NCBI GenBank assembly: GCA_951406725.2
Contig: OX597826.1
Coordinates: 44,144,001 to 44,208,000 of the forward strand
Source: Octopus vulgaris
Taxonomy: Eukaryota
DNA: 64,000 bases
Direction: 5' to 3'
Both the position numbers and the translations under genes were made by a program. Of the stretch, positions 27,020-62,120 are shown one piece after another (within the stretch, counting starts at the first letter, position 1; every line of letters starts with the position of its first letter). Under the pieces are notes generated by a model. The model ran no database searches. It had not been told where the DNA came from and saw only the letters and a program-made list of their open reading frames with translations.

Positions 27020-27162
27020 ATACATGTAACTCTCAATAAACTGGTTGAGTATCCTTTCGTTTGTCCAGTCACTCGTGTATATATATATTCGGTGTGTGGT
27101 GAGGCAAATCGTTGCTAAACCCTTAATTACTTAGTATTACTTATATATATATATATATATAT

Positions 27163-34733: not shown

Positions 34734-34799
34734 TATATATGTATGTATATATATGTATATATATGTATATATATATTTTTCTATATATATATACATATA

Positions 34800-34892
<93 letters not shown>

Positions 34893-34895
34893 AAT

Positions 34896-35580
34896 AAAAA
34901 ATAAGGGTGAAGAAATTGGATATTAATTTTTTAATAACATCAATTTAACACCAAGAGGTTTAGAGCATAAAAACTGGGATACAGTAAAAATTAATACACA
35001 AATATAAGAGAGGGTCCACTATGTGGACGATCTTGCGCTAAAAGTAGATCTGCAATGGTCTCAACCACCAAGTAGTGGACCATTTCTTATATTTGTGTAT
35101 TAATTTTTACTGTATCCCAGTATTTATGCGCTAAACCACTTGGTGTTAAATTGATGTTATTAAATTAACATCCAATTTCTTCACCCTTATTTTTGATTTT
35201 AATTATACTGCAGTAAATTATTTATGCAGTATTTGTTTCCGTAATTTTGGCGCGCTATAACGAGGGCATTCGAATCATAACTGCGAATATAATAGACTGA
35301 ACCACACGTGTGTTTGGCTTTATGTTAAAATCTGGCGTGCGGTTCCATAACTTATATTCATGACGAATTCTACTGATGAGCTGTGGATCTATTATGTAAG
35401 TAACGTTGCATAATCCATTAACAGTGAAACAATTGTCTAGAATTAATCTACAATTTTGTTATTTTTCATTTGTCCTGCTCGTTTACGTTCATAGTTGTGC
35501 TAATTCTCCTTGGGAACAATTCTTGGCGGTTGAGACCATTGCGGATCTATTTTTAGCGCAAGAGCGTCCTCTCTTATATT

Positions 35581-35586
<6 letters not shown>
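34896..35586 (+). mobile_element. PLE-type pLTR insertion (inverted partial copy plus forward copy with HHR) between (TA)n tracts
   Basis: Arms 34896-35021 / 35073-35194; 35523-35586 is the reverse complement of about 34995-35072; HHR at 35366. Confidence 0.8.
35366..35444 (+). ncRNA. Type I hammerhead ribozyme, intact core, minimal palindromic stem III
   Basis: aattcta-CTGATGA-gctgt..ggat..ttatgtaa/ttgcataa..atcc..acagt-GAAAC-aatt-GTC^tagaatt. 7-bp stem I; predicted cleavage after 35437. Confidence 0.88.
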
Positions 35587-35634
<48 letters not shown>

Positions 35635-44729: not shown

Positions 44730-44920
44730 GTGTATATTAAGGGATAACCATATATGGTTATCCACCAAGTGGTTATCCCTTAATATACACATGTATTGCA
44801 TTTTTTCTGATTTTTCAGTCTACTGGTTTTAAATTGATATTAATTAAATTAATATTCAATTTATCACCCTCGTTATTTAAATTATATATATATATATATA
44901 TATAATTTATCACCCTCGTT
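44725..44920. repeat. 26-bp perfect inverted repeat plus duplicated end motif atttatcaccctcgtt within TA tracts
   Basis: tacatgtgtatattaagggataacca / tggttatcccttaatatacacatgta. Confidence 0.8.
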
Positions 44921-56639: not shown

Positions 56640-58239
56640 CAGTTGCAGCCAAAATGTTCAGAACGGCATTGTTTTCGTTAGAAAAGTAAGTGTAAGTTTT
56701 TATCAACGTTGTTTTATATTCTATAATTTTCACAGACAATAAATACAATATTATTTGTTATTGTCTGAGATTTTGGTGTAATTTGAGAGGATAATACAAA
56801 AGTTATGAATGATTTAGTGATTTACTGCAAAACCCATGGCGGCCAAAATGATCAGAACGGTTGCTTTTACTCCGTGTTTTAGTATATTTAACCGGCGAAC
56901 TCTAATGCTTTGAATTTGTTTACTTGACGGTTCGTTTACTAAACATTAGTAAAAATATCTACAGTATACTTTGTTAATATAATGCCACTTACTCCGTTAC
57001 CAATTCGTCAGCAGATTATTAAGCTTCGAAAGAAGGATAATTTTAGTATTGGGTCTATTGCAAACATTGTTAACAAGTCAAAAAGTGTTGTTCAAGGTAT
57101 TCTTAAGGTCTACGATAATTGTGGTTCGTGTGAAGCAATACAGTCTACAGGTAGGCTAAGAAAAACGACCAAGAGAGAAGATCGTGCTATGGTAAAGTTG
57201 GTTAAAAAGGACAGATTTAAAACTGCTGCTGCTGTTTCTCGGGAACTGAGCCTTGTACTGAAGAAAAATTTATCTCGAAAAACTGTGTCTCGTCGTTTAG
57301 TTGAACATGACCTACAAGCAAGAGCACCTGCAGTGAGGCCACTGATCAGCTCCAAGAATAAAAAGTGTCGTCTTACCTGTGCAACCGAACATGGCAAACT
57401 ATGCATTGCAGTGATGAATCTAAGTTTATGTTATTTGGCTCAGATGGGAAAAGGTACGTTCGTCGAAAAGTAGGTGAAAAATTGTTGCCTAAATGCCTTA
57501 AGACTAGTGTTAAATTCGGTGGAGGAAGTGTCATGGTTTGTGGGATGATATCTGGAGATGGCGTGAGCCCTTTGGTGCCATTACATGGAAAGGTAAATGC
57601 AGGAGTTTATAAACAACACTTGTAAAAGATCATGTCTTGCCTGTGCTGAGAAATTCAACTAAGCGACCACCCATATTCATGCAGGACAATGCCCCATGTC
57701 ACATGGCTAAGGTGGTCATGAACTTCCTCAAGGCTGAAAAGGTTATTGTTATGGATTGGCCTGCTCAAAGCCCAGATCTCAATCCTATTGAAAATGTGTG
57801 GAATATTCTGGGAGAACGTTTGAAAGCCAGAAATCCTAAAACAACCGAGCAATTATGGAATGCCCTTCAGGAAGAATGTATTAAAATCACCCAGCAAGAA
57901 ATTGAAAATTTAATTTCCTCATGCAGTCAAAGTGTGATTGAAGCTAAAGGGCTTCACACTAAATATTAAATAATTCCAGTATTCTCTGTCATTTTTGATT
58001 AATTTGTTATTTTTTCAACCGTTCTGATCATTTTGGCCGCCATGGGTTTTGCAGTAAATCACTAAATCATTCATAACTTTTGTATTATCCTCTCAAATCA
58101 CACCAAAATCTCAGACAATAACAAATAATATTGTATTTATTGTCCGTGAAAATTATAGAATATAAAACAACTTTGATAAAAACTTACACTTACTTTTCTA
58201 ACGAAAATAAGGCCGTTCTGAACATTTTTGTCGAAACTG
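56640..58239 (+). mobile_element. Tc1-family (DD34E) DNA transposon, IR/DR type, complete ends
   Basis: 224-bp TIRs (56640-56863, 58016-58239) each with two direct repeats resembling gccaaaatg(t/a)tcagaacgg; TA TSD at 56638-39 and 58240-41; 1600 bp. Confidence 0.97.
56982..57969 (+). pseudogene. Tc1 transposase, frameshifted
   Basis: HTH region with TGRLRKTT, then SDESKF, GGGSVMV, QDNAPCH and WPAQSPDLNPIENVW over three ORFs. Confidence 0.95.
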
Positions 58240-61199: not shown

Positions 61200-61545
61200 G
61201 GAACTGTTTCCGGCGGGGAACGCAATGTTTCAGGATGATAATGCACCAATTCACATAGCTAAAGTTGTTACTGAATGGCACGAGGATCATTTTGGTGAAG
61301 TTGAACATCTTATCTGACGACCATTGTCCCCAGATCTGAATATTATTGAACATTTATGGTGCATTTCAGAAAAATAATTAAGTAGTCGATATCCTTCACC
61401 ATATGACTACAAGAACTGGGGACTGTTTTAGCTGACGAATGGACAAAAATTCATTTGGAAACAATTCAAACTTTTTACGAGTCCTCTACCTCGTAGCATT
61501 CAAAAATGTGATTACTGCTAATATCAATTTCTACTCTTATTAAAT
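61200..61545 (+). mobile_element. Tc1-like transposase 3' fragment
   Basis: QDDNAPIH...PLSPDLNIIEHLW. Confidence 0.85.
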
Positions 61546-61747
61546 TTTATATTAAATAAATATGTTCTCTAACCGGTAAACTGACTGCTGCTACTTCTTA
61601 GCTGCAGGGTGGTTTTTCCGGTCTCAGCGCGCCAAAGTGAAGGCATTTGAAAAATACATTTAAATATAATCGGTTGAACTCCATGCATGCGAGACTCCGG
61701 TCAATCGTTTTTGCATCTAGTCCAGCAAATTGTATTTTATATAACAG

Positions 61748-61814
61748 ACCATGCTGACGAGATTACAGTTTATCCTTGCAGATAATAATAATCGAAACTG
61801 ATTCAGTACATGGT
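61748..61814 (+). ncRNA. Type I hammerhead ribozyme, canonical core and three paired stems
   Basis: accatg-CTGACGA-gatta..ttatc/gataa..taatc-GAAA-ctg-att-cag-TA^catggt. Predicted cleavage after GUA at 61808; the host segment ends at (TA)n at 61975. Confidence 0.92.
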
Positions 61815-62120
61815 TAATTATTTTTATTTCGTATATTTTCATTTGTCTTGTTTACTGCTTTGGTTTTGTGCTGAGTTTGTATTTGAGAACATACCCTTTG
61901 TGGAAAATAGCGATTTGACGTCTATATCTAGCATGTTGACTGTCCACTTTTCGTGTTCAGTCCTTTAAATTTTGTATATATATATATATATATATATATA
62001 TTGGTGAATTGAAGAAATGGAGCTGAACGCAGATTGAACAGAAATCGTTGTGATTTTTGCTACTAAGGTATCGGTTAAACTTTTGATTAATCTACTACAA
62101 GATTATTCATCTTTCTATTT

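Follow-up and report, generated by a model that had tools for sequence, protein, structure and literature searches.

Positions 34892–35587 of the window, a 64,000-nt stretch of Octopus vulgaris contig OX597826.1, hold a single inserted copy of a 505-nt repeat family that is dispersed and non-coding; it is set inside a (TA)n microsatellite. We take it to be an aged non-LTR retrozyme insertion. Copies of its family terminate within (TA)n at either of two fixed points separated by 101 nt, and the insertion was likely written in trans by a Penelope-like reverse transcriptase (RT)/GIY-YIG protein, which would have used both ends of the cut TA repeat as primers; we give this reading a probability of about 0.8.

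The element sits between two (TA)n runs that are evident in the sequence, at 34785–34891 on the left and 35588–35629 on the right of the target, and any target-site duplication is masked within the TA run. The original prediction had placed the element at 34896–35586; the element is there, with its true ends at 34892 and 35587. It consists of two arms joined head-to-head. The inverted, 5′-truncated arm (34892–35072, minus strand) runs from position m427 of the monomer to about m101, and its outer end is E2, the second of two fixed 3′ ends. The forward arm (35073–35587, plus strand) holds a full 505-nt monomer plus ∼25 nt (∼1.05 monomers) and ends at E1, the first fixed 3′ end. The tail, the interval of ∼101 nt from E1 to E2, occupies 34892–34993 of the inverted arm (minus strand), where it terminates in the word CCCTTATTTTT, with a predicted hairpin before the word. 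An internal tail copy (35101–35199, plus strand) forms with the inverted arm a fold-back that had been predicted at ∼125 bp and that self-BLAST of the window recovered as inverted arms of ∼128 bp (34892–∼35020 and ∼35073–35199) around a spacer of ∼51 nt. The whole inverted self-match is 266/314 (E 1e-98). In agreement with a further prediction, that the end of the element is complementary to the fold-back spacer and part of the left arm, the terminal segment (35522–35587, plus strand, last letters CTCTTATATTTGTGT) aligns with the reverse complement of 34994–35072 (62/79), the forward copy lacking 13 nt. This deletion takes out most of the hairpin that precedes E1 in other copies. The two arms of the window copy differ by 6%. 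As predicted, no coding sequence was found: the longest stop-free frame wholly within the element has at most 67 codons. No host gene is known in the window, where 20 of 22 scanned frames (51 listed) had no Pfam match and the other two matched transposase.

The predicted hammerhead ribozyme, with its 7-bp stem I, long stem II and GAAAC-aatt-GUC strand, was located in all its elements on the plus strand at 35366–35444. Stem I pairs 35366–35372 with 35438–35444; the core comprises CTGATGA (35373–35379), GAAA (35426–35429) and C-AATT-G (35430–35435) followed by TC, and the 46-nt stem II region lies between the first two (35380–35425). Cleavage is predicted after C35437. Helix III is a single C-G pair capped by the palindromic tetraloop AAUU, which makes this a type I hammerhead motif of the canonical, short-helix-III kind. 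The motif had been called an intact minimal hammerhead. The core is indeed intact, but the strict minimal form (min-HHR) has no helix III or loop 3 and a helix I of 4–5 bp (PMC4209133), so that label does not suit a motif with a looped helix III and a 7-bp helix I. A short helix III with a palindromic loop needs a dimer, according to the available portions of PMC4209133 and PMC7229834, and the hammerhead studied here would be expected to act chiefly as a dimer, cutting to release monomers. In structure prediction the monomeric hammerhead fold (−12.1 kcal/mol) lies 6 kcal/mol above the minimum free energy fold (−18.3 kcal/mol). Only one hammerhead core is present at the locus, so self-excision of a monomer should not be possible there, and the window copy is probably dead.

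Conservation of the hammerhead among copies, on which the original prediction depended, was borne out for the core. Among 28 aligned copies CTGANGA is kept in 26, with position 7 the variable one (T, A or G), and GAAA and TC are kept in all 28; exact matches to the core number 72 genome-wide, compared with 0 for a control. Within the helices 94.6% of cells can pair and compensatory changes occur in helix I and helix II (2/25 pairs), a level of covariation no better than in shuffled alignments (score reached in 35/500, pair count in 487/500). When the whole window was searched against Rfam, the 150 best of the 205 hits contained microsatellite-driven miRNA hits only and no hammerhead. A GTAAGT resembling a splice donor lies at 35395–35400; most copies have it, inside hammerhead loop II, and E2 is followed by a T-rich tract with a terminal CAG that resembles an acceptor (35192–35215). 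PLEs (Penelope-like elements) often carry an intron in the 5′ UTR; no joint between this donor and this acceptor was found in contigs from three runs presumed to be RNA.

A search of the AT-rich, 2.8-Gb genome with the element returned at least 1378 candidates and 47 scored matches, and a 27-nt motif at the E1 end has 101 exact matches (control, 0). We surveyed 130 loci, 102 of them distinct once overlaps were removed, chosen by three queries with a bias towards long arms, tails or the E1 motif. In copies that extend further 5′ the sequence repeats with a period of 505–506 nt. The unit is thus a monomer that wraps on itself, which leaves no room for an ORF and is not in keeping with an LTR/PBS/PPT organisation. 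Long arms have a median identity of 89% (42 arms); together with the 6% difference between the arms of the window copy, this indicates that the family is not young. Few tandem hammerhead units were seen: copy L020 has two intact cores 504 bp apart, copy L026 has a second core that is mutated, and the 72 exact cores include one same-strand pair (504 bp apart) and no triple. At G000:C24:12.45–12.59 Mb four identical cores lie 26–52 kb apart and copies L164 and L165 have near-identical flanks, probably through segmental duplication; both of these duplicate-like copies were retained in the survey. A look-up of the element listed no RNA data set that contains it; the contigs from the three presumed RNA runs span parts of the unit. 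In two of the three runs the best-covered contigs start at 35256 with a TA flank resembling that of copy L023, so they may derive from a host transcript or from DNA.

Two further traces of related sequence were noted in the window. A distant relative lies at 61480–61980 (plus strand; local alignment score 152, shuffled maximum 94.5), with its own hammerhead at 61754, a longer helix III and a T-rich end word before (TA)n. A decayed piece of the family tail lies at 44824–44886 (plus strand; 79% over 68 nt); it ends at a TA run, after which its last 20 nt recur.

Among 164 arms at the 102 loci, 78 end at E1 (window 35587), 62 at E2 (window 35199 and 34892, ∼101 nt further) and 24 elsewhere, and a TA run abuts 121 of the 140 arm ends classed as E1 or E2. 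The 5′ ends are scattered over the whole unit. In head-to-head pairs the two ends combine in a regular manner: of 48 such pairs, 35 join E1 with E2, one has E1 twice, one has E2 twice and 11 have an unclassed end, which gives E1+E2 in 35/37 fully classed pairs (p 5e-9 against 0.5). These fixed 3′ ends, the pairing and the TA targets support the predicted PLE-type insertion. The 5′ inversion of the prediction is not one of the ordinary LINE type: the inverted part duplicates sequence of the forward arm and has a fixed outer end, E2, of its own.

The original prediction had itself pointed to an alternative, namely that the arms are fixed terminal inverted repeats (TIRs) of a DNA transposon. A MITE or fold-back DNA transposon with TIRs, a TA target duplication and a chance hammerhead might be suspected from the inverted arms and TA flanks of the window copy, and a Tc1/mariner remnant does occur elsewhere in the window. 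The survey makes this extremely improbable: the arms are not fixed, their lengths varying between ∼35 and 879 nt, and the sequence at one outer end is unlike that at the other. Many copies are single-armed, and different copies carry circular permutations of the monomer. The Tc1/mariner transposase remnant itself lies at 56943–57969 (plus strand), in two frames with matches to HTH_Tnp_Tc3_2 and DDE_3.

The arms of one insertion are related to each other more closely than to the rest of the family. Arm-to-arm identity within an insertion is 95.0%, compared with a median of 90.1% to other copies, and is the higher value in 31/32 cases. The 5′ stops of paired arms lie at most 50 nt apart in 18/35 pairs (10.7 by permutation, p 0.003) and more than 50 nt apart in 17/35; a model of equal-length arms fits just 3/35. 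At the joints the arms overlap by −1 to −28 in 22/35 pairs. Such same-variant arms, matched stops and the E1+E2 rule would also result if a cDNA primed at E2 snapped back and was copied back on itself, and an endonuclease then cut the copy at E1, a resolution site on this view, so that it could be joined to the second target end. The short overlaps at many joints favour this course of events, as does the suggestion, in the accessible part of PMC8557442, that the tail arises by EN-mediated resolution. If the cDNA were copied back, however, the E2 arm should invariably be the one that extends further 5′, and by circular difference it is the E1 arm that does so in 16/35 pairs; the E1 arms of the window copy, L030, L140 and L024 contain hundreds of bases that their E2 partners lack. 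Moreover, the text available for PMC11167929 reports that a PLE starts reverse transcription at both tail ends in vitro. We therefore regard snap-back as unlikely, and prefer two separate priming events.

The template of these events can be narrowed down from how far the arms extend. The hammerhead cut site is crossed by more than 25 nt in 57/140 arms, and 21/140 exceed one monomer, with a maximum of 879 nt; a cleaved linear monomer cannot therefore be the sole template. The predicted terminally redundant or circular RNA thus holds in the sense of a multimeric or circular template. A circle specifically fits the data, and we consider it slightly more probable than not; an uncut multimer has a nearly even chance. 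The lack of any visible long master array leans towards the circle, although an old master could have decayed. An RNA circle closed at the hammerhead cut site would leave no visible joint. Stops at particular sites add little: 10/46 arms at risk stop at the hammerhead cut, compared with 13.6% in flanking bins (p 0.09, not significant), stops of E1 arms at E2 (3/7 at risk) are too few, and E2 arms show no pile-up at E1 (4/46).

The same genome contains the machinery that the proposed reading calls for. It has 148 GIY-YIG matches and many PLE copies with RT and GIY-YIG. One abundant PLE family retains an intact 781-aa RT + GIY-YIG ORF (L093:3245–5590 and related loci). Its pLTRs are 99% identical and its tail is 40 nt; 14/20 arm ends fall at one point and 6/20 at another, and all 20 are followed by TA-rich sequence. 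Both the enzyme and the insertion footprint thus exist in this genome. Hammerhead-like motifs with altered cores were observed in the pLTRs of the L093, L100 and L073-flank PLE families.

With coding PLEs this abundant, the copies might be 5′-truncated pLTR remnants of an autonomous coding PLE, and their ends, target and hammerhead position are those of PLE pLTRs. Arms that reach far 5′ nonetheless run through the tail into another E1 with the period of 505–506 nt. The 5′ ends share no common non-monomer sequence upstream, and among 30 of the 148 GIY-YIG loci, Hydra and Naiad loci being left out, none matched the monomer outside microsatellite. We consider this origin very unlikely; what the original prediction described as pLTR architecture is a non-autonomous 505-nt monomer wrapping on itself, not the pLTR of a coding element. 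Both the MITE and the coding-pLTR identities were rejected on the copy survey, with its variable arms, two ends and wrapping monomer.

A partner PLE was also sought in other ways. None of 12 longer stretches matched the element convincingly. PLE fragments lie within 1.5 kb of five distinct family loci; the three inspected are separate insertions, and the flanks of L025 and L144 were judged from coordinates only. The length of the tail speaks against a PLE acting in trans: it is 101 nt, compared with a published 30–40 nt and with 40 nt in the intact PLE family. In favour are the properties reported for PLEs. As described in the part of PMC11167929 available, the protein, a predicted dimer, cuts AT-rich DNA on both strands and extends each of them; it starts reverse transcription internally at two sites, the stretch between which is the genomic tail, and hammerhead cleavage is dispensable in vitro. 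The available sections of PMC8557442 describe inverted 5′-truncated copies as typical of PLEs, frequently with a tail on just one side, and with a bias towards (TA)n, and bioRxiv 10.64898/2026.07.22.740005, in the portion available, proposes that animal retrozymes depend on PLEs.

On the proposed reading, a PLE protein would nick both strands of the TA repeat. Synthesis would begin from one 3′-OH at E1 and from its counterpart at E2, with a single RNA or identical RNAs as template, and each start would lie just 3′ of a predicted hairpin and at a CYCUUAUWUUUG word. The RNA template would be multimeric or circular. Both cDNAs would stop at variable, loosely matched positions, and head-to-head joining of the truncated products would involve a few overlapping or filler bases.

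The start sites themselves show some resemblance. Similar words stand at both ends, CTCTTATATTTG at E1 and CCCTTATTTTTG at E2 (10/12 by direct reading). When the forward arm was scanned as 12-mers with a one-base shift, E2 did no more than tie at 9/12 with two other places, and the end word is by itself weak evidence for this reason. A hairpin is predicted just 5′ of each end word in a consensus fold of 30 sequences; the fold of the tail region has a double change in 1/37 pairs, that is, little covariation. The end word followed by (TA)6 has 202 matches in the genome, overlaps included, compared with 4 for a control.

Some of these matches belong to other repeats. Among 23 distinct fetched sites with the end word and (TA)6, seven lie outside the 505-nt family. 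Two of the seven sit downstream of different hammerheads. Three belong to a second family with two arms, in which CCCTTA-like words mark both ends at spacings of 101, 119 and 120 nt (L188, L190 and L196; also L102 and L168), and of which a fragment is present at window 27082–27132. The tail of this second family is marginally similar to that of the 505-nt family (the score was reached in 1/1000 shuffles); the bodies of the two families are not similar, and no hammerhead was found in the examined parts of the second family. Further unrelated hammerhead repeats lie beside TA runs (L091:3770–4370, L185:1150–1520, L199:1100–1515, L101:2500–2850 and L102:1421), one of them with a period of ∼447 nt. 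We tentatively suggest, as a possibility for which the odds are against rather than in favour, that both break ends prime on one RNA circle at two sites 101 nt apart, each consisting of a hairpin and a CYCUUAU word, and that otherwise unrelated non-coding repeats have this long-tail module in common as a portable signal for the RT to start (in the L188 family, too, both ends bear this word, 101 nt apart), which would point to a PLE with a start-site spacing of 100 nt. The 101-nt tail with its repeated word yields a concrete prediction of what the RT recognises, one that the in vitro PLE system could test.

Retrozymes, their proposed PLE origin and the Penelope insertion footprint are already published; the sole detail not covered by the papers cited is a tail of 101 nt with its repeated start word. 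The element itself is ordinary; its value is as a natural record of Penelope machinery copying non-coding hammerhead RNAs, a link that has so far been proposed. On cephalopod retrozymes or hammerheads PMC8557442 was the one relevant paper, and no cephalopod retrozyme is described, in the literature searched, whose scope did not extend to subscription journals and Repbase, and the family may already be catalogued.

Three known systems invite comparison; except for min-HHRs, it extends to the portions available of the sources cited. Like retrozymes (PMC7229834; bioRxiv 10.64898/2026.07.22.740005), the 505-nt family is non-coding, low in GC and dispersed, and has a type I hammerhead and partial tandems. 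Its one-pair helix III, closed by a palindromic tetraloop, resembles that of the axolotl HHR_Amex1, and its length falls within the range of 51–972 bp given by Li et al. (bioRxiv 10.64898/2026.07.22.740005). It is longer than the retrozyme RNAs of 170–400 nt in PMC7229834. Unlike metazoan retrozymes as described there, it showed no long tandem arrays among the 72 exact cores, and most copies are truncated two-armed inversions. The window hammerhead shares with min-HHRs a long helix II, palindromic 15.2/16.2 and loop 3 and the expectation of action as a dimer; it differs in having a looped helix III and a 7-bp helix I in place of 4–5 bp, and lacks the extra base between positions 9 and 10.1. 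It also differs from the Hydra-1_Obim hammerhead in the supplement of PMC8557442. With EN+ PLEs (PMC8557442, PMC11167929) the family has in common two fixed 3′ ends, a one-sided tail, an inverted 5′-truncated copy, partial tandems, a (TA)n target and a hammerhead upstream of the start sites. Unlike them it has no ORF, a tail of ∼101 nt instead of 30–40 nt, no sequence link found to a coding family, and a similar CYCTTATWTTTG word at both of its ends.
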